Source: an uncultured Planctomycetia bacterium | GTDB lineage: Bacteria > Omnitrophota > Gorgyraeia > 2-01-FULL-45-10 | Assembly: GCA_964352425.1 (NCBI GenBank) | Contig: CAYGRZ010000002.1 | Span: forward strand, 18,240 to 82,239 | Reading direction: 5' to 3' | DNA length: 64,000 nucleotides | Part shown: positions 3,142-45,443 of the stretch, one piece after another | Position numbering within the stretch: position 1 is the first letter of the stretch | How the letters are laid out: the number at the start of each line of letters is the position of its first letter | Position numbers and translations under genes: made by a program | The notes under the pieces: model-generated | What the model was told of the DNA's origin: nothing | Database searches by the model: none | What the model saw: only the letters and a program-made list of their open reading frames with translations

Positions 3142-3290
3142 CAAATATGGGACAGAAAAGCCAGTACCAGATCGAGAATAAACAGAGGCAAAAGAGGAAA
3201 AAGGCGAGGCAGAAACTCACCAAGAAGGGCGAGAACCTGTCTGAATTTTATTACGGGAAGTTCTACATAAAGCAGGGCTAGGCGGGCGGC

Positions 3291-4232
3291 ATGTACGACA
3301 TAGCGATACTGGGCGGCGGGCCCGCGGGCCTGACCGCGGGGCTCTACGGGAGCCGCGCGAGGATGAAGACCGTGCTGATCGAGCGCGCGGCGTGCGGCGG
3401 CCAGATCCTCATCACCGATACGATAGAGAATTTCCCGGGTTTTCCGGAAGGGATCAAAGGGCCCGACCTTGCTGACTGGATGGCCAAACAGGCCGCTCAC
3501 TTCGGCCTGGAGGTCACGCTCGCCGAGGCCAAGTCGGTGGCTTTGGGTGAGGACGGGGGAGGGCCTTTTTCGGTCGAGCTTTCCGACGGCGCGAAGGTGC
3601 GGGCGCTCGCGCTCATACTGTCGACGGGAGCGAGATGGAACGAGCTGGGGATCCCCGGCGAAAAGGAGCTCGCGGGCAGGGGCGTGTCTTATTGCGCCAC
3701 CTGCGACGGCCCGCTCTTCAGGAATAAAGAGGTCGTGGTGGTCGGCGGCGGCGATACCGCGCTCGAGGACGCGCTCTTCCTGGCGAAGTTCGCCGGCAAG
3801 GTGACGGTGGTCCACCGCCGCGAACGCTTACGGGCGACGAAGATACTGCAGGAGCGCGCGCTCGCGAATAAGAAGGTGGAGTTCTGCCTGAATTCGGTCG
3901 CGGTGAGGATAACCGGCGGCGCGAAGTGTGAGGCACTCGAAGTGAAGGATGTCACTACCGGCAGCACGAAAGCCATGAGGGCGGATGGCGTGTTTGTCCT
4001 GATAGGGATGGCGCCAAACTCAGGTTTAGTAAAGGGCATCGTGAAGCTTGATGAGAAGGGCTACGTGCTGTGCGATGACGATATGAAGACCTCGGTAGGC
4101 GGGATATTCGCCTGCGGGGATGTCCGTAAGAAGCTCCTGCGGCAGGTCGTGACCGCCGCAGGCGACGGAGCGACCGCGGCCTTCAGCGCCCAGCATTACG
4201 TCGAGCGCCTGAAAGGCGTCGAGTACAAATAG
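3291..4232 (+). CDS. trxB: Thioredoxin-disulfide reductase
   Basis: GGGPAG FAD motif, CATC redox-active dithiol, second GGGDTA NADPH motif. 313 aa. Confidence 0.9.
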   Translation: MYDIAILGGGPAGLTAGLYGSRARMKTVLIERAACGGQILITDTIENFPGFPEGIKGPDLADWMAKQAAHFGLEVTLAEAKSVALGEDGGGPFSVELSDGAKVRALALILSTGARWNELGIPGEKELAGRGVSYCATCDGPLFRNKEVVVVGGGDTALEDALFLAKFAGKVTVVHRRERLRATKILQERALANKKVEFCLNSVAVRITGGAKCEALEVKDVTTGSTKAMRADGVFVLIGMAPNSGLVKGIVKLDEKGYVLCDDDMKTSVGGIFACGDVRKKLLRQVVTAAGDGATAAFSAQHYVERLKGVEYK

Positions 4233-5158: not shown

Positions 5159-5717
5159 CAAGAAGAGAGCGATGCGAAACATAAGGAACGTCTTCAGGGG
5201 CAGGCTGCTTAAGGTGATGGTGAAGCAGCAGCGCCTGCCCAGCGGCTATCTCGCCATCTTCGAGATGATCGAGCACCCCGGCGCCAGCCTTGTGGTGCCA
5301 TTCCTGGGCAGGGACAGGATAATAATGCTGAGGCAACTCAGGCCGGTCATCGGGTCCCACATATATGAACTTCCTGCCGGCACGCTCGATAGGAATGAGA
5401 CGCCGCTGGCATGCGCCCGACGGGAGATCGTAGAAGAGACGGGGTACTCCGCCAGGCGTTTTACTCTTTTGGGAAAGATATATCCGGTCCCCGGCTACTC
5501 GACGGAGAGGATATACCTATATAAAGCCACAGGATTGAAGAAAGTAATACACGATTGTAGGGCACGCTTAAGTGTGCCCTACCAGCGCCATGGAGAAGAG
5601 GATGAGGTCATAGAATCTTTCGTTGTCACAAAGTCTGCAATAAGAAAGCTCTTCAGGAGCGGAAAGATCACCGACGCAAAGACCATAGCCGCCCTCGCCT
5701 TCTGCGGATGGCTCTGA
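5145..5717 (+). CDS. NUDIX hydrolase (ADP-ribose pyrophosphatase-like) carrying an in-frame palindromic insertion
   Basis: NUDIX box GTLDRNETPLACARREIVEETGY. Start uncertain (Met codons at 5145 and 5172). Residues IHDCRARLSVPYQRH are encoded by a REP-like palindrome. Confidence 0.7.
   Translation: MRAYSKKRAMRNIRNVFRGRLLKVMVKQQRLPSGYLAIFEMIEHPGASLVVPFLGRDRIIMLRQLRPVIGSHIYELPAGTLDRNETPLACARREIVEETGYSARRFTLLGKIYPVPGYSTERIYLYKATGLKKVIHDCRARLSVPYQRHGEEDEVIESFVVTKSAIRKLFRSGKITDAKTIAALAFCGWL
5554..5582. repeat. REP-like palindromic element copy (ATTGTAGGGCACG-CTTAAG-TGTGCCCTAC) inside the NUDIX CDS
   Basis: Matches the perfect palindrome at 36655-36686 at 28 of 29 aligned positions. Confidence 0.6.
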
Positions 5718-5739
5718 CCAGATCGGAAAGATCAAGACC

Positions 5740-6930
5740 ATGGAAAATAAGACGATACGATTGAGGAGCGGCCGCCAGGGCAGGTATCAAAGCGGCCACC
5801 CGTGGATATACAGGAGCCAGCTCTTAAAGGCGGATCTTTCGATAAAGCCGGGCAGCGTCGTCACCGTGCAGGCATCGGACGGCGCGTTTATCGGCAAAGG
5901 CTATTTCAACCCGCGGTCGGAGATAGCCGCGCGGATCCTCACCTTTCAGGACGAGCCGGTAGATGCCGCGTTCTTTGACGCGAGAATACGCTCGGCATTC
6001 GGGAAGCGGGAGCATCTGGCAGCGAAGACGAACGCCTGCCGTGAGGTCTTCAGCGAGGCCGACGGCCTTCCCGGGCTCATCATCGACATGTATGCCGATA
6101 CCGCCGTTATGCAGATCATGACGCTCGGCATGGATATGTTCAGGGACGAGATCCTGCAAGCCATCCGGGCGATAGTGAAACCAAAATATATATACGAGAA
6201 GAGCGACTCGCCGTTCCGGAAACCGGAAGGCCTGAAGATGAGAGAGGAGTGGCATGGCCAGCCCGGGCCCTCGACGATAGAGATATCCGAAGGAAAAGCG
6301 CGGTTTATCGTCGATATCGGGCGCGGCCACAAGACGGGCTTCTATCTCGACCAGAGGCCTTCGCGGATGGCGATGCATACGGTCTCGAAGGGTAGGCTCG
6401 TGCTCGACCTCTTCTGTTACACGGGCGCGTTCGCGGTCCATGCCGCGCTCTCGGGCGCGCGCGATGTGCTCGCGGTCGATATCAAGGAAGACTGGCTCGA
6501 ACTCGGCCGTCGGAACGCCGATCTGAACGGCGTTGCCGGCAGGGTCACGTTCGCAAAAGGCGATTCGCTCGTCTTCCTCAGGCATATACAGCGCTCCGGC
6601 AGGACTTTTGATATGATAATAATCGACCCGCCGTCGTTCATAAAGGCGAAGGATTCACTTGCCGCGGCGTCGAAGGGGTACAAGGACCTGAACCGGACGG
6701 CGATGAGATGCCTGAATCAATCAGGCGTTCTGGCGACGTTCTCGTGCTCCCATTACATGCCGAACGACATATTCTCGCGCCTGCTGAAAGAGGCGGCCTC
6801 CGAGGCGGGTAAGTCGATCTCGATAGTGAAACGGTGCCATCAGGCGGAAGACCACCCTATCGTACAAGGCATCCCCGAGACCGAGTACCTGAAGGGGTAT
6901 TTTCTTAACGTAGAGAGCGTGGTAAAATAA
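5740..6930 (+). CDS. rlmI: Class I SAM-dependent 23S rRNA (m5C1962) methyltransferase, RlmI family (PUA plus methyltransferase domains)
   Basis: N-terminal GHPWIY motif, DLFCYTGAF SAM-binding motif, 396 aa. Confidence 0.75.
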   Translation: MENKTIRLRSGRQGRYQSGHPWIYRSQLLKADLSIKPGSVVTVQASDGAFIGKGYFNPRSEIAARILTFQDEPVDAAFFDARIRSAFGKREHLAAKTNACREVFSEADGLPGLIIDMYADTAVMQIMTLGMDMFRDEILQAIRAIVKPKYIYEKSDSPFRKPEGLKMREEWHGQPGPSTIEISEGKARFIVDIGRGHKTGFYLDQRPSRMAMHTVSKGRLVLDLFCYTGAFAVHAALSGARDVLAVDIKEDWLELGRRNADLNGVAGRVTFAKGDSLVFLRHIQRSGRTFDMIIIDPPSFIKAKDSLAAASKGYKDLNRTAMRCLNQSGVLATFSCSHYMPNDIFSRLLKEAASEAGKSISIVKRCHQAEDHPIVQGIPETEYLKGYFLNVESVVK

Positions 6931-40005: not shown

Positions 40006-40119
40006 GCCGTGATCCCGGCGGCCGTATAGTGCGATATCGTTTTGATTTACGAAGCCTGCTGGTGTACAATAGTAGGCTGCAGTATAGATAACGTAGGCTT
40101 AAGCACAAAAAGGAGCGAA

Positions 40120-40620
40120 ATGAAGATACGTCAAAAAAGCAAAAGTTCTCCGGTCACGCCGCAGGCCGGGCCGGATGTAGCGGCCACGATCGACAGGATA
40201 CAGCAGCAGCTGGTATTTTTAGAGAAGAAGATAGATACGCTGATCAGCCAGTCTTCGGCGAGGCCTCCGGAGGCGCGGCATTTTTCAAAACCCTTCCAGC
40301 GCTTTGACCACGCCCCCCGCCACGGCGAAGGAAGACAGGAGGGCGGTTTTAAGGAAAGGACCCTGCATAAGGCGATCTGCGCGGACTGCAATAAAGAATG
40401 CGAAGTCCCTTTCCGGCCCAGCGGCGAGCGTCCGGTGTACTGCAGGGAGTGCTTTGCGAAACGCAAGACCGGCGAACCGTTCAAAGCCAAACACGAGCAC
40501 AGGCCCAGGGAAGAGAGCTTTTCTCAGGAACGCCACTTTGAGAAGCGGCGCGGCGGCGAAGGCCGGAAGTCCGCCGAAAGAAAGAAGCCGGTTGCCCGGC
40601 ACCGGAAAGGGCGCGCGTAG
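40120..40620 (+). CDS. CxxC-x17-CxxC domain-containing protein (basic, coiled-coil N-terminus)
   Basis: CADC-NKECEVPFRPSGERPVY-CREC matches the CxxC-x17-CxxC family exactly. ATG at 40120 with an AGGAG RBS. A paralog lies at 45214. Confidence 0.6.
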   Translation: MKIRQKSKSSPVTPQAGPDVAATIDRIQQQLVFLEKKIDTLISQSSARPPEARHFSKPFQRFDHAPRHGEGRQEGGFKERTLHKAICADCNKECEVPFRPSGERPVYCRECFAKRKTGEPFKAKHEHRPREESFSQERHFEKRRGGEGRKSAERKKPVARHRKGRA

Positions 40621-40704
40621 ATATTCGGCTTGAGAAGTTTAAGCGGCATGATACAATGTGCGGGTTTCTGTGATGCGGTGCGATCGTACAATAGGGGATC
40701 GATA

Positions 40705-40932
40705 ATGGGAACGTCAAGGTGCTGGCAGGACAATGTCGTTAATGGATTCGGTAAAAGAAACGGCAAGATGAAAGTAGTCGACAGAAAGAAACTCAGGCGG
40801 CTCTTTGTGCGGAAGATGGTCAAAGAGCTGAAGGCCGCCGGTAAACCTGTTGATCTGCAGGCGATCAACCATACGGCGAGGGACACGTACGGCAGGAAGA
40901 GGCAGTCCCAGAAGCCGAAGCACAGGGTGTAG
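40705..40932 (+). CDS. Small basic hypothetical protein (~75 aa)
   Basis: ORF with an AGGGGA RBS. Lys/Arg-rich. No recognisable domain. Confidence 0.3.
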   Translation: MGTSRCWQDNVVNGFGKRNGKMKVVDRKKLRRLFVRKMVKELKAAGKPVDLQAINHTARDTYGRKRQSQKPKHRV

Positions 40933-41025
40933 ACTCTTCGTCCGCCGCCACAGCCGGTTATTGCCCACCTGCCACGCGTAAGCGGCAGGTGGGTTTTCTA
41001 TCGAAAGAGAGAGGAGGCCAACGAG

Positions 41026-41535
41026 ATGGCGTATGAGGACGGGAAAGATTATTATGAAGAAGAGGAATCGTCCCCGGTAGCGCAGGTCGCGGTCCGGGAC
41101 GCGGGCCGATTTGTCGAGGCGATGCTGCGTTTCTTCGCCGGCAAAGGGACCCTGTACGTCTCGTCGTATGATTTCGGTTACTGGGCGGGCCTGCTGTCGT
41201 GCTTCAGGACCGGCGAGAGGGTAAAGCTGAAAACGTCTTTGCCGGACCCGGCATTTTTGGAGAACGGATTCAGCATAACCGAAGAGTTCATCTATGTCTT
41301 TTCGATCGACTGCCTTAAAAATATAGACGCCAGGAACATGTTCAACCAATTCCTGGTCTACCGGGAAGGTTGCGCGCTCGTCCAGTGCTGCAGTAATTTT
41401 GACGATGTGTATGTGAACATCAAAGCGCCGCAGAGCCTTATCAGGACGCTGATCGGCAGCGATATCATCGCATCCTGGGACATGCTCTCCGCGCCGATAA
41501 AAATAGGTTGCAAACGGCTCCGCCAAAAATTATAA
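41026..41535 (+). CDS. Hypothetical protein (acidic N-terminus, no recognised domain)
   Basis: 169-aa ORF with coding-like composition. Confidence 0.4.
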   Translation: MAYEDGKDYYEEEESSPVAQVAVRDAGRFVEAMLRFFAGKGTLYVSSYDFGYWAGLLSCFRTGERVKLKTSLPDPAFLENGFSITEEFIYVFSIDCLKNIDARNMFNQFLVYREGCALVQCCSNFDDVYVNIKAPQSLIRTLIGSDIIASWDMLSAPIKIGCKRLRQKL

Positions 41536-41561
41536 TAGAGCTAAAAGAGGAGCGCCCGCAT

Positions 41562-41948
41562 ATGGATAAACCAGCCGTTGAAGAGAAGCGCGAGTTTCTG
41601 CGTTACCGGTATGACCGCCCCTTAAGCTATACAGTCATCACGTCTTCAGGCGAGCCGGGTGTCCGGTCGAGGGCGCTTGACGCCGTCGCCAGGAACCTGA
41701 GCGCCTGCGGGGTGCTTTTTTCAAGCAAGCACCTCCCGGAGATATCCAGCATCATCGCGCTCGACCTGGATTACCGGACCACCAGGATATGCCAGGAGAT
41801 CGAGGCCAACGCGCTCATCGTCAACAATAAGATCGTCGGGAAGGTCGTCCGCATCGAGGAAGACGCGGACGGGCTGTACGGGGTCGGCGTCGCCTTTATC
41901 AGGAGGCTGGCCCGCCTGCCGAAGGACCTCGAAAAACTTATCACATAG
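41562..41948 (+). CDS. PilZ domain protein (c-di-GMP receptor-like)
   Basis: RxxxR motif (REFLRYR) and D/NxSxxG motif (NLSACG) at canonical spacing. Confidence 0.6.
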   Translation: MDKPAVEEKREFLRYRYDRPLSYTVITSSGEPGVRSRALDAVARNLSACGVLFSSKHLPEISSIIALDLDYRTTRICQEIEANALIVNNKIVGKVVRIEEDADGLYGVGVAFIRRLARLPKDLEKLIT

Positions 41949-41997
41949 CCGGCGGCGGGGCCGTCTCCCCGAAGAAACCCCTCATCGTTGGGATGCT

Positions 41998-42549
41998 ATG
42001 CGATACCCGATCAGATTCCCGGCCCTCATCATCTGCCTGAGCCTCATCGTGTGCGGATGCGCCGCGATGCGCTATCCGGGCGCCTACAAAGTGGAGGGCA
42101 GGGAGTTCAAAGAATTCAAAGACCTCGATGATGAACGCGCGCTGAAGCTGGTCGCCCTCATCTATAATGTCAAGACGCAGTGCTGGGAAGACGGCATAGC
42201 CAGGGGCATCGCGCTCGAAGAGTATCAGGGCCTCCTCGCAAAGAGAAAGTCCCCGTACATAAAAAATTCCGGCATCTTCGACATCAAATATGATAAGGCG
42301 AACATCCCGTCGTGGAAAGACGGGGATCTGGCGCGATTATACGATTGCCTTTATCCGAAGGCCAATGCCTACTACGCCGACTCCGCGCCCGAGCTTTCAG
42401 AAACGCAAAACGCGCGCAGGATCGTATTCCTGACGGCGGTCAATGCCGTCATCAGGGAGCTGAAGAAGCGGGACATCACCCGGAAGGCGGTCATGATCGC
42501 CGGCCAGGTCCTGACCACCGCTCTTACGGTCGCGCTGTCGCTTATATAA
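41998..42549 (+). CDS. Hypothetical lipoprotein
   Basis: Signal peptide with a Cys in a lipobox-like context (LSLIVCGC). Confidence 0.45.
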   Translation: MRYPIRFPALIICLSLIVCGCAAMRYPGAYKVEGREFKEFKDLDDERALKLVALIYNVKTQCWEDGIARGIALEEYQGLLAKRKSPYIKNSGIFDIKYDKANIPSWKDGDLARLYDCLYPKANAYYADSAPELSETQNARRIVFLTAVNAVIRELKKRDITRKAVMIAGQVLTTALTVALSLI

Positions 42550-42563
42550 TACGGGGATCCTGT

Positions 42564-44474
42564 ATGAAAAAAATGATCGTCCTTGTCCTCCTGGCGCTCT
42601 GCGCCATCGGAGCCTATCCTGCCGGGGCCGAAGACGCAAAGGATAAGGAATTTCTCGATACGATCGAAAAGCAGGCTTTCGACTATTTCTGGAAAGAGAC
42701 CAGCGCCGAGACGGGCCTTACCTATAATACATCGGAAGTAAGGGCCCCCGCGACGAATGCCGCGACAGGTTTCATGCTGTCCGCCCTGGTGATCGGCGTG
42801 GAGAGGGGATGGATAACCCGTGATGGGGCGTACGGGCGTGCGCTCGCCGCGCTGAAGTCTGTTGCAAAAATGGAGCGGTTCCACGGGTTCACCTATCATT
42901 ATTTCCACATTGAAGACGGCACGCGCATGTGGTCGAGCGAAGTCAGCTGTATCGATATGGCGCTATTCCTTGCCGGGGCCATCACCGCCGGCGAATATTT
43001 CAAGGGAACGGAGGTCGAGGAGTTGGCCGGCCGGATATTCAGCCAGACGGACTGGCAGTGGTTTTTGGACGGCGAGAATATCCTGCAGATGTCATGGAAA
43101 CCGGAAGGGGGTTTTTCCGCGAGGATCGACAGGTTCTCCGAAGGCATTCTGTGTTATATACTTGCCATGGCCTCGCCGACACATCCGATCGCTGCGTCCT
43201 GCTGGGACGCCTTTTTACGGCCGGTCGGGAAATACGGCGGCCATGAACTCATCTACGTCTCAGACGGCAGCCTGTTCCAGTACCTGTACCCGCTGGCATG
43301 GCTCGACCTGAGGGATAAGCACGACAGGTACGCCGATTACTGGCAGAACGCCATAAGCGCCGTCAAGGCCAACAAGGAATATTGCCTCAACAATGCCTCC
43401 GCCTTCAAGACATTCAGAGAGGGGTTCTGGGGCCTGAGCGCTTCGTTATCGCCCCGCGGCTACAAGGTATTCGGCGCGAAGCCCGGGAGAAACCTGACCG
43501 ACGGCACGGTCACGGCCGATGTCGTCGCCGCGTCGATCCCGCTTGTCCCGGAGTTCGCGATCGATGACTACAGGGCCATGTACCGGAAGGTCCCCGAGGC
43601 CATCGAGCAGTACGGCCTGACCAACGCTTTCAACATCGACCAGGACTGGGCGGCGCGGCATTATATCGCGATCGACAAAGGGCTGATGCTGCTGATGGTG
43701 GAGAACTACCGGACCGGCCTTATCTGGAAGTATTTTATGCGTAACGCCCATGTCCGCAACGGCTTTGCCGCGGCAGGCTTTACCCCGGGAAGCCAGCCCC
43801 TTCCCTCGAAACAGGACATCATCCCCGGGAATCCTCACGATACTGTCGAGGTTAAAAAGATCTCAGCGGCCGTGAGCGTGGATGCCGACCTTTCGGAATG
43901 GAAAGGTGCCGCACCGGTCATTCTGACAAGCAAGGGTAATAGGAACGTCGAGGTCATCCTGGGGTACGTCAGGGACGATGTGGATGCGAGCGGGCAGTTC
44001 TACCTGGCGTGGGACGATGACTACCTGTACATAGCCGGAAGGATACAGGATGACGAGATAGTCTGCGGGAAGGCCGGAGATAAGATATACCAGGATGACT
44101 GCGTCGAGGTCTTTTTCGATGTGGACAAGAACGGGTTTTACTTTAACAGGAACCTCAATGATTATCAGCTTGGGTTAGCGCCGGGAGGGCCCGGCGCTCA
44201 GCCGCAGGCCTGGGCGTGGGGATACCGGAACACCGTCCCTGCGGGCGTGCTCTATGCCGCCAGGCCGGCCCCGGGCGGCTATAATATTGAACTGGCCATC
44301 CCGTTCGCCGAAATAAACAATTTTATGCCGGGCGACGGGAAGAGTGTCCTGTTCTCGATCTCGATCCATGATCGCGATAAGAACGGTAAGGCCAAGAAGC
44401 TCACGTGGTCGGTCGATTCGATGAGCGATCCCGATACAATCATGTTCGGGACGCTTGTCCTGAAAGAGAGATAG
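42564..44474 (+). CDS. Secreted glucoamylase-family (GH144-like beta-glucanase family) protein with a C-terminal CBM9-like sugar-binding domain
   Basis: Signal peptide. N-terminal region FDYFWKETSAETGLTYNTSE and an (alpha/alpha)6-like core reminiscent of Pfam 'Glycoamylase' proteins. C-terminal DDCVEVFFDVDKNGFYFNRNLNDYQLGL resembles CBM9/DOMON-like modules. Family assignment is tentative. Confidence 0.5.
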   Translation: MKKMIVLVLLALCAIGAYPAGAEDAKDKEFLDTIEKQAFDYFWKETSAETGLTYNTSEVRAPATNAATGFMLSALVIGVERGWITRDGAYGRALAALKSVAKMERFHGFTYHYFHIEDGTRMWSSEVSCIDMALFLAGAITAGEYFKGTEVEELAGRIFSQTDWQWFLDGENILQMSWKPEGGFSARIDRFSEGILCYILAMASPTHPIAASCWDAFLRPVGKYGGHELIYVSDGSLFQYLYPLAWLDLRDKHDRYADYWQNAISAVKANKEYCLNNASAFKTFREGFWGLSASLSPRGYKVFGAKPGRNLTDGTVTADVVAASIPLVPEFAIDDYRAMYRKVPEAIEQYGLTNAFNIDQDWAARHYIAIDKGLMLLMVENYRTGLIWKYFMRNAHVRNGFAAAGFTPGSQPLPSKQDIIPGNPHDTVEVKKISAAVSVDADLSEWKGAAPVILTSKGNRNVEVILGYVRDDVDASGQFYLAWDDDYLYIAGRIQDDEIVCGKAGDKIYQDDCVEVFFDVDKNGFYFNRNLNDYQLGLAPGGPGAQPQAWAWGYRNTVPAGVLYAARPAPGGYNIELAIPFAEINNFMPGDGKSVLFSISIHDRDKNGKAKKLTWSVDSMSDPDTIMFGTLVLKER

Positions 44475-44484
44475 GCCGCGCCAT

Positions 44485-44916
44485 ATGCCGGGGAGGTCTG
44501 CGATGGGTACATTCGGCGCAAGTCGCCGGAAAGAAGAAGCCCTGCGGGCCGAGATGGCGCGTTTCGGCGTAAAAGAAATCGACCTGGCCGAGCATTTCAT
44601 ACGTTCGACCGGCCCGGGCGGCCAGAATGTCAATAAGGTAGCGACCGGCGTCTACCTGAAACACCGGGTCACGGGGATCGAGGTCAAGTGCATGGCCGGG
44701 CGCTCCCAGGCGCTCAATCGTTTCAGGGCGCGGCAGATACTCCTGGCGAAGATAGCCGACGCGGTCCTCGGCAGGGAGTCCGAGGCGCGCAGGACGATAG
44801 AAAAGATACGCCGGCAGAAGAGGAAGCGCTCGAAGAGGGCGAAAGAGAAGATGCTTGCCGCCAAGCGCGCGCATGGCCGGCAGAAGACATTGCGCAGGCC
44901 GGTGGAGATGGAATAA
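44485..44916 (+). CDS. arfB: Alternative ribosome-rescue factor ArfB (peptidyl-tRNA hydrolase, class I release-factor domain)
   Basis: GGQ motif (STGPGGQNVNKVATGV) and basic C-terminal tail. 143 aa. Confidence 0.75.
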   Translation: MPGRSAMGTFGASRRKEEALRAEMARFGVKEIDLAEHFIRSTGPGGQNVNKVATGVYLKHRVTGIEVKCMAGRSQALNRFRARQILLAKIADAVLGRESEARRTIEKIRRQKRKRSKRAKEKMLAAKRAHGRQKTLRRPVEME

Positions 44917-45015
44917 GCGGCAATTTTTTTTATGTATTTATTAGGTTATTTTTGCCTTTTGGTGTATAATACGCATGTCCCGTGCGGGATGGCCCCACGA
45001 TAAAAGGAGGGCAGG

Positions 45016-45201
45016 TTGGCAAGAGACAATTACTCGTATCGAAAGTATCAGAGGGAATTGACAAAGAAAAAGAAGAAAGAGGCAAAGCTGCAGCGTAAAC
45101 TGGATAAGAAGAACGTACCGTCAGCGGGGGATCCAGGGCAGGTTCCAGGCGGAGATGTAGCGGTAAACCCGGAAGCCCAAAACAGTAACCAAAGCTCATA
45201 A
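45016..45201 (+). CDS. Small lysine-rich hypothetical protein (61 aa, TTG start)
   Basis: AAGGAGG RBS 5 nt upstream of the TTG. Extended -10 (TGtATAAT) upstream. Confidence 0.35.
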   Translation: MARDNYSYRKYQRELTKKKKKEAKLQRKLDKKNVPSAGDPGQVPGGDVAVNPEAQNSNQSS

Positions 45202-45213
45202 AAGGGAGGAAAC

Positions 45214-45383
45214 ATGGGATATCAAGGCGGTGGTGGCGGCGGATACGGCGGAATGCCGAGAGAAATGCACAAAGCGGTGTGCGCTGAGTGTAAGAAGGAA
45301 TGCGAAGTGCCCTTTAAGCCGAGAGAGGACCGTCCGGTATATTGCAAGGACTGTTTCTCGAAGCGCAAAGATAGCGGCCGTTA
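45214..45383 (+). CDS. CxxC-x17-CxxC domain mini-protein (56 aa, Gly-rich N-terminus)
   Basis: CAEC-KKECEVPFKPREDRPVY-CKDC, a paralog of the 40120 protein. GGGAGG RBS. Not in the ORF track (under 60 aa). Confidence 0.55.
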
Positions 45384-45408
45384 AGTAGAGTCGCGGATCC
45401 GCATTAAA

Positions 45409-45443
45409 AAGGCCCGTCATTTTCACGGCGGGTCTTTTTTTTG
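45409..45443. terminator. Bidirectional rho-independent terminator between convergent genes
   Basis: Stem AGGCCCGTC/GGCGGGTCT (two G-U pairs) with a T8 run downstream and an A-run upstream. Confidence 0.6.

Follow-up and report, generated by a model that had tools for sequence, protein, structure and literature searches.

A 64,000-nucleotide stretch of DNA (hereafter the window) from an uncultured bacterium labelled Planctomycetia and placed by GTDB in the Omnitrophota (assembly GCA_964352425.1, contig CAYGRZ010000002.1, positions 18,240 to 82,239) encodes two zinc-finger proteins, each next to a small gene for a lysine-rich protein. The long form, of 166 amino acids (aa), lies at 40120–40620 on the + strand and is followed by a gene that we call famB; the mini form, of 56 aa, lies at 45214–45384 (+) and is preceded by a gene that we call famA. 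An earlier note, made by a model from the sequence alone, had described the two zinc-finger proteins as paralogs of a CxxC-x17-CxxC family without characterised function, and this description is borne out on both counts. In hidden Markov model (HMM) searches, the long form scores 63 bits against TIGR04272 (cutoff 36 bits) and 63.4 bits against PF23477 (cutoff 27 bits), and the mini form 69.5 and 70.8 bits, respectively. By BLASTP, the two proteins align over 39 residues with 64% identity (E = 6e-19), and a six-frame translation of the whole window contains just two matches to the pattern C..C-x17-C..C, namely these two genes. They are thus true paralogs within TIGR04272/PF23477 (zf_Tbcl_2, "probable treble clef zinc finger"), a domain family that is already catalogued, and every testable defining feature of that family is present in both.

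The four defining cysteines (C87, C90, C108 and C111 in the long form; C23, C26, C44 and C47 in the mini form) are invariant across 77 homologues. A fifth cysteine, C94 in the long form and C30 in the mini form, is invariant in this subfamily, and the finger also contains invariant F34, K35, R40, Y43 and K50. Net charge is +18 for the long form, +17 for FamB, +7 for FamA and +4 for the mini form. Sequences with 75–98% identity to the mini form occur over many lineages; there are 1393 homologues at 90% clustering, and a wider search with the mini form returned 5047 representatives (50% clustering, E <= 0.001). The best-scoring distant members carry two to five tandem fingers joined by RGG/RD-rich linkers, and some add a short heptad helix (e.g., EKLDIILELL) and a Lys/Ala-rich tail; named members of this wider family come from Thermoplasmatota and Patescibacteria. 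Our literature search found no paper on the function of the family and one, from 2025, on expression and zinc binding in Methanosarcina mazei, which has eight paralogs, the small proteins A00184 and A01980 among the members of TIGR04272/PF23477 (PMC12704099). Homologues of that archaeon have been seen by mass spectrometry, two of them bind zinc as measured with ICP-MS, and oxidised cysteines have been reported (PMC12704099). By analogy with these homologues, the long and mini forms would be expected to bind zinc. The catalogued members share with the window proteins the spacing of the four cysteines and a VPF(K/R)P...RP(V/I)YC core, and those of M. mazei have roughly the length of the mini form; the long form differs in that its finger is held within a coiled-coil and disordered scaffold.

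From N to C terminus, the long form comprises a heptad helix (residues ~19–43), a KPFQRFD motif, the treble-clef domain (HMM match to residues 80–116, nucleotides 40357–40467; cysteine pattern at 40378–40452, + strand), an RPRE/F-rich segment, and a basic tail ending in ERKKPVARHRKGRA. Residues V20, I24, I27, L31, L34, I38 and L41 follow the 4-3-4-3 spacing of a coiled coil, in line with the coiled-coil N-terminus proposed in the earlier note. The gene is preceded by a promoter-like site, TTGATT-17-TACAAT (40042–40070, +), a pattern match with 9 of 12 consensus positions in a consensus scan. The mini form, which has its own Shine-Dalgarno sequence, consists of a Gly-rich N-terminus and the finger. 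In its AlphaFold2 model, the Gly-rich segment is disordered, strands 19–22 and 29–32 make a beta-hairpin (residues 19–32) that holds the first CxxC, and a helix (residues 45–55) begins at the second CxxC; mean pLDDT, taken per 10-residue block here and below, is 82–89 for residues 21–50. The modelled fold is a treble clef. In a sequence search of solved structures, the mini form matched nothing beyond the second half of LIM domains, and that marginally (E >= 0.02).

In other lineages, the scaffold is found without the finger. Directly 5′ of the mini gene in six loci labelled Acidobacteriota (L072–L077), there is an open reading frame (ORF), overlooked by the gene caller, that encodes a helix (MQQQLLFLEKKIDLLISQ), an SKPFRSFD motif and a KKKPFSFKRKDRE tail, with no finger. 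The same position in Omnitrophota loci L078–L085 is occupied by a gene for a scaffold of 149–171 aa with GFSxDRPREGG repeats. These finger-less scaffolds align with the window long form end to end, the finger excepted, and the long form can therefore be read as a scaffold into which a finger has been inserted. The scaffold comprises the heptad helix, a KPF motif, a disordered stretch rich in Arg, Gly and Phe, and the basic C-terminal tail, and in the long form the finger sits midway along it. As judged from these alignments, the scaffold is fused to the finger in the window and is a separate gene 5′ of the mini gene elsewhere. Fusion in one lineage and adjacency in another imply that finger and scaffold most likely act as one unit, and we regard this fused/split pattern, a relation that the earlier note had missed, as the strongest evidence that the finger would act together with a partner polypeptide. 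Neither the fused and split arrangements nor the partners FamA and FamB appear in the one paper found on the family (PMC12704099).

Two further observations concern the loci with split scaffolds. In L072–L074, the uncalled scaffold ORF (3554–3928, +) is overlain by a called antisense gene of 179 aa (3263–3802, -) without a Pfam match, which is probably a mis-annotation. In L078–L085, a conserved basic ORF of 58–62 aa (MAKKVFRKLSTSKVTTFKIRNRRGY; ~2735–2949, -), also without a Pfam match, converges on the mini gene.

The cysteine spacing raises an alternative that we consider unlikely, namely that DNA or RNA polymerase is what these small zinc-finger proteins bind, either as nucleoid-associated-like proteins or as factors of the DksA/TFIIB type. 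DksA has identical CxxC-x17-CxxC spacing and a coiled coil, which lies N-terminal to the finger as it does in the long form. The long form, however, has a single short helix, whereas DksA and TraR have a two-helix hairpin with an acidic tip, and the PROSITE pattern for DksA/TraR is not matched by the window sequence. There is no Pfam match to zf-dskA_traR (PF01258) or TFIIB at E <= 0.1, and comparison of the mini-form alignment with E. coli DksA (a query entered by hand) gives an hhalign probability of 0.9%; we accordingly rejected the identification of the long form as a DksA/TraR protein. A transcriptional role has been proposed for the M. mazei proteins from their TFIIB-like cysteine spacing (PMC12704099). 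Some sources name the mini homologues P0344 and P0397 "DNA-directed RNA polymerase", but these names come from automated annotation, and no model stands behind them here. Weak structure matches do include GATA and other DNA-binding treble clefs, and the Patescibacteria members have Lys/Ala-rich C-terminal tails that resemble those of histone H1. Against this, the recurrent neighbours include no gene for RNA polymerase or a sigma factor; they are translation and RNA genes instead, as described below.

The mini gene is the second of a closely packed pair. famA (45016–45201, +) encodes 61 aa from a TTG start that follows AAGGAGG; a 12-nucleotide (nt) gap containing a second Shine-Dalgarno sequence separates its stop codon from the mini ATG, and the pair has a single intrinsic-terminator-like hairpin, 3′ of both genes (45406–45439, +; a 13-pair stem, then a T-run). 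A candidate extended -10 element, TGGTGTATAAT (44960–44970, +), was read by eye and is absent from the promoter-scan output; TGTATAAT or GGTATAAT occurs at a similar distance 5′ of famA in L003, L009, L014 and L104. As predicted from this layout, famA and the mini gene are a two-gene operon. The earlier note's suggestion of a small TTG-started gene here is well founded: famA has 77 homologues, in which the first 33 residues (MARDNYSYRKYQRELxKKKKKEEKLQRKLDKKN) are near-invariant and the tail is variable. Across 15 loci (the window, at 45016–45018, L003–L015, L019 and L104 being covered), the start codon is TTG in 11, GTG in three and ATG in one, always 5–7 nt after AAGGAGG. By a rough count, TTG starts only two of the 32 window genes with a Shine-Dalgarno-supported start. 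A weak start codon conserved behind a perfect Shine-Dalgarno sequence suggests that famA is controlled at initiation. The TTG start also accounts for the failure of the gene caller to call famA in L001 and L002, where famB was called. Near-identical contigs from runs ERR3804374 and ERR3804373 carry the same locus.

A short motif, GCGGGA(T), lies 10–25 nt 5′ of the Shine-Dalgarno sequence in about six famA leaders, after the TGTATAAT-like -10 (window 44975–44995; leaders of L003, L005, L009, L014 and L104), and a similar sequence, GTGCGGGTT, follows the famB -10 in the window. The string GTGCGGGWT, common to the famA and famB leaders of the window, is not enriched in it (three matches, 1.3 expected).

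famB (40705–40932, +) likewise proves to be a genuine gene, as the earlier note had it. It encodes 75 aa, and its 69 homologues are conserved along their full length from M1 (ATG at 40705). AlphaFold2 predicts a helical hairpin with basic tails (helices 24–45 and 51–62; block-mean pLDDT >90 for residues 31–60). A promoter-like site with a TG-extended -10, TTGAGA-16-TACAAT (40630–40657, +; 10 of 12 matches in the consensus scan), lies between the long-form gene and famB, and at other famB loci (leaders of L021–L037) a TGGTAtAAT-type element is followed by a leader of ~60 nt ending in a conserved AGGGGATCnAnAATGGGA. RNAalifold gave no consensus structure for the famB leader, and the only Rfam match in the window is a tRNA-Phe, with nothing in the leaders.

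FamA and FamB match no model in Pfam, NCBIfam, PHROGs or PADLOC, and neither matches any known ribosomal-protein model or solved ribosomal chain. No solved-structure relative of FamB was found by sequence, and the closest solved-structure match of FamA was uS19, at a marginal E = 0.15. The MAR.N..QREL string of FamA prompted a comparison with SERF/4F5, which we rejected (hhalign probability 5% over seven columns, with SERF queries entered by hand, and no Pfam match). All organism-named homologues of the two small proteins that were returned by homologue searches come from Candidatus Omnitrophota. Short famA-like ORFs (MAKPNYQYEKRQRELAKKKKKEEK) with no finger gene nearby are seen under other labels, namely Gammaproteobacteria, Deltaproteobacteria, Desulfobulbaceae and Spirochaetaceae (L017–L020) and Planctomycetota (L013); that of L019 follows a cold-shock-domain (CSD) gene and that of L020 an RNA-recognition-motif (RRM) gene. 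These ORFs suggest a wider micro-protein family without a Pfam or NCBIfam match.

How far do these pairings recur? Our famA scan covered a genome collection with one genome per species and gave 12 informative Omnitrophota loci, some of them labelled Planctomycetia. A finger gene adjoins famA in nine of the 12, in either gene order: the mini gene is directly 3′ in six (L005, L008, L009, L011, L012 and L014) and directly 5′ in two (L010 and L015), and in L006 famA comes after a 168-aa long form. The reversed order and the change of partner imply that it is adjacency itself that has been kept, rather than one inherited arrangement. A second survey, which started from the mini protein and was unbiased toward any partner, covered eight lineages. 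famA lies 5′ of the mini gene in three (the window, L102/L103 and L104–L106), a finger-less scaffold lies 5′ in two, a cold-shock gene lies 3′ in one, and the other two have no such partner adjoining. For famB, a scan of metagenomes gave 41 loci, 21 of them informative, and the long form adjoins famB in nine of these and not in 12. famA and the mini gene thus make a genuine, recurring pair, whereas famB and the long-form gene do so only in part; in neither case is the pairing obligatory. The earlier note had each finger gene partnered with a small Lys-rich ORF. Both adjacencies do recur, and each small ORF is also found without a finger gene. The partners, however, are unrelated (an hhalign probability of 0.1% led us to reject FamA and FamB as one family), and famB has a promoter-like site of its own. 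Since the partners come from two unrelated families, this is not one two-gene design used twice.

It is also possible, if improbable in our view, that there is no functional partnership: the small basic genes would merely be syntenic in one Omnitrophota clade, and the fingers would work by themselves, e.g., as sensors or buffers based on zinc or thiols. The 12 famB loci without a finger neighbour, and the promoter-like site of famB, fit such a reading, as do the famA genes without a finger gene (L003, L004, L013 and, in distant phyla, L017–L020) and the mini genes that stand on their own (L062–L071 and L101). The invariant fifth cysteine would suit a sensor, as would the oxidised cysteines of M. 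mazei (PMC12704099). Against this, the adjacency of famA and a finger gene persists through reversal of order and exchange of the partner, the window pair is separated by 12 nt and shares one terminator, the fused/split scaffold argues that the finger works with a partner polypeptide, and no metal-homeostasis genes recur nearby.

The neighbourhoods of these genes point to RNA and translation. In the window, the famA-mini operon follows a gene for a stand-alone GGQ protein with an RF-1 domain and a basic C-terminal tail (44503–44916, +; PF00472, 74.6 bits), which carries GPGGQNVNK and the tail RRQKRKRSKRAKEKMLAAKRAHGRQK and was called as 137 aa in L001. In size (~140 aa), GGQ motif and long basic tail, it resembles ArfB (YaeJ)/ICT1. 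Calling it arfB, as the earlier note did, goes too far, however: it scores 44.5 bits against the ArfB model NF006718, whose cutoff is 100, with only residues 26–62 aligned, and domain 3 of RF1 and RF2 gives it a higher score than ArfB does. The name ArfB-like stand-alone GGQ protein describes it better, and it may represent a separate factor of ribosome rescue. It differs from ArfB also in that its homologues lie in operons with famB and ABC-F genes: famB, the ArfB-like gene (4284–4703 in L031, 3126–3602 in L033, 4304–4714 in L034) and a gene for a 650-aa ABC-F protein follow one another in these three loci, and two ABC_tran domains and ABC_tran_Xtn were confirmed individually for L031. In L011, the order is famA, mini, CSD, RRM, one ORF, and the ArfB-like gene (5657–6064).

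More broadly, six of 18 famA loci have a CSD or RRM gene no more than 4 kb away (L004, L008, L010, L011, L019 and L020, the last two being the distant famA-like ORFs of Desulfobulbaceae and spirochaete genomes), as against none of 41 famB loci (Fisher p = 4e-4; p = 0.02 using only famB loci of at least 4 kb). A CSD gene is directly 3′ of the mini gene in L086–L091, and a gene for a Uup-like ABC-F protein is directly 5′ of famA in L008. RsmE is encoded directly 5′ of famB in L028 and L035, and L029 has an ORF of matching size and position. Other neighbours include SUI1 (two hits) and SmpB (one hit, L046) for famB, and RRM (three hits) and Der/EngA (two hits) for famA. Farther afield, a Patescibacteria locus (L092, 2587–8492) encodes P0433, a two-finger protein with a helix and a tail rich in Lys, among an ABC-F-like ATPase that has two ABC domains, BipA/TypA, and a DbpA-domain helicase of the DEAD-box type. 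These neighbours, modest in number, are mutually consistent, and the whole is consistent with an RNA/translation context.

The same neighbourhoods bear on a further alternative, that the two-gene units are toxin-antitoxin modules, defence systems or cargo of mobile elements. Small genes in two-gene units with a patchy distribution might be read in this way, and L072 has a VapBC pair some 2 kb away from its mini gene. Even so, we hold this to be very improbable: none of five window proteins is matched by PADLOC, PHROGs has no match for the four finger and small basic proteins and matches the ArfB-like protein to RF-1 domain families only, and no integrase, transposase or repeats flank these genes in the window. 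The 75–98% identity of the mini protein over many lineages is typical of housekeeping proteins, and the neighbours are core translation and RNA genes.

We favour the interpretation that the finger proteins are zinc-dependent accessory proteins associated with RNA or the ribosome, and put its probability at roughly 50%. Stabilised by zinc, the finger would bind RNA through basic and aromatic residues that are conserved, jointly with the segments rich in Gly/Arg and in Lys; the RNA might be ribosomal RNA on the ribosome or messenger RNA. The coiled coil would oligomerise the scaffold and so make the long form at least bivalent. Such proteins could serve as abundant accessory RNA chaperones or ribosome-associated factors, acting with cold-shock proteins, RRM proteins, the ArfB-like peptidyl-tRNA hydrolase and ABC-F ATPases. 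That the proteins dimerise, and that they have any connection with stress, is what we infer. The earlier note had guessed at nucleic-acid or ribosome binding from the basic composition of the proteins; the gene neighbourhoods fit this guess, and the binding itself is argued from them.

Several points weigh against this interpretation. RNA or ribosome binding is deduced from association for every member of the family, and among the 150 best representatives and the 120 best close homologues none has the finger fused to a CSD, RRM, KH, S1 or helicase domain. The neighbourhood enrichment is modest and comes from loci that are phylogenetically non-independent, and in small genomes, those of Patescibacteria among them, translation genes often turn up as neighbours. 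Lys/Ala-rich tails are equally typical of DNA-binding proteins like histone H1. Finally, the partnerless mini genes noted above lie in unrelated contexts.

The design that we propose has parallels among RNA-binding proteins of eukaryotes in which RGG regions occur together with zinc fingers, such as FUS/EWS/TAF15, with RanBP2-type fingers, and the plant cold-shock-domain/glycine-rich proteins with CCHC knuckles. In these, too, low-complexity segments rich in Gly/Arg lie on either side of a small zinc module; the relatives of the window proteins have tandem fingers with RGG-like linkers, and the genomic association with CSD and RRM genes extends the likeness. The finger here, by contrast, is a treble clef with x17 spacing and has no sequence homology to those proteins, so that the resemblance is one of design only.

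A more ambitious version of the proposal, which we offer tentatively and hold to be doubtful, is that finger, scaffold, FamA and FamB make up a modular set, so far undescribed, of factors associated with the ribosome or RNA that would work with the ArfB-like GGQ hydrolase and ABC-F proteins under translational stress, for example in the cold, across Omnitrophota, Acidobacteriota, Patescibacteria, Thermoplasmatota and Methanosarcina. If so, FamA and FamB would count as ribosome-bound proteins peculiar to particular lineages; the conserved TTG start of famA would then point to control at translation initiation.

With members in both bacteria and archaea, the CxxC-x17-CxxC family is a large one, and its proteins are readily detected in M. 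mazei proteomes. To it we add the finding that scaffold and finger are fused in some lineages and split in others, with the coiled-coil scaffold as a lead for a physical partner; two conserved micro-protein families, FamA and FamB, that lack a Pfam or NCBIfam model; and an RNA/translation neighbourhood (CSD, RRM, ArfB-like, ABC-F and RsmE), together with the conserved TTG start of famA. Confirmation of the association with RNA or the ribosome would make these a new class of small accessory proteins that depend on zinc, from phyla that have received little study. A workable organism in which to test the role is M. mazei.

Finally, the finger genes of the window have other neighbours: genes for a double-zinc-ribbon protein (PF12773; 39190–40005), a PilZ protein (41508–41948) and a glycoamylase/CBM9 protein (~42560–44474). 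Nothing suggests a functional link between these and the zinc-finger genes. The order double-zinc-ribbon gene, long form, famB, a gene for a 169-aa protein without assigned identity, and PilZ is kept in L021 and rearranged in L022.

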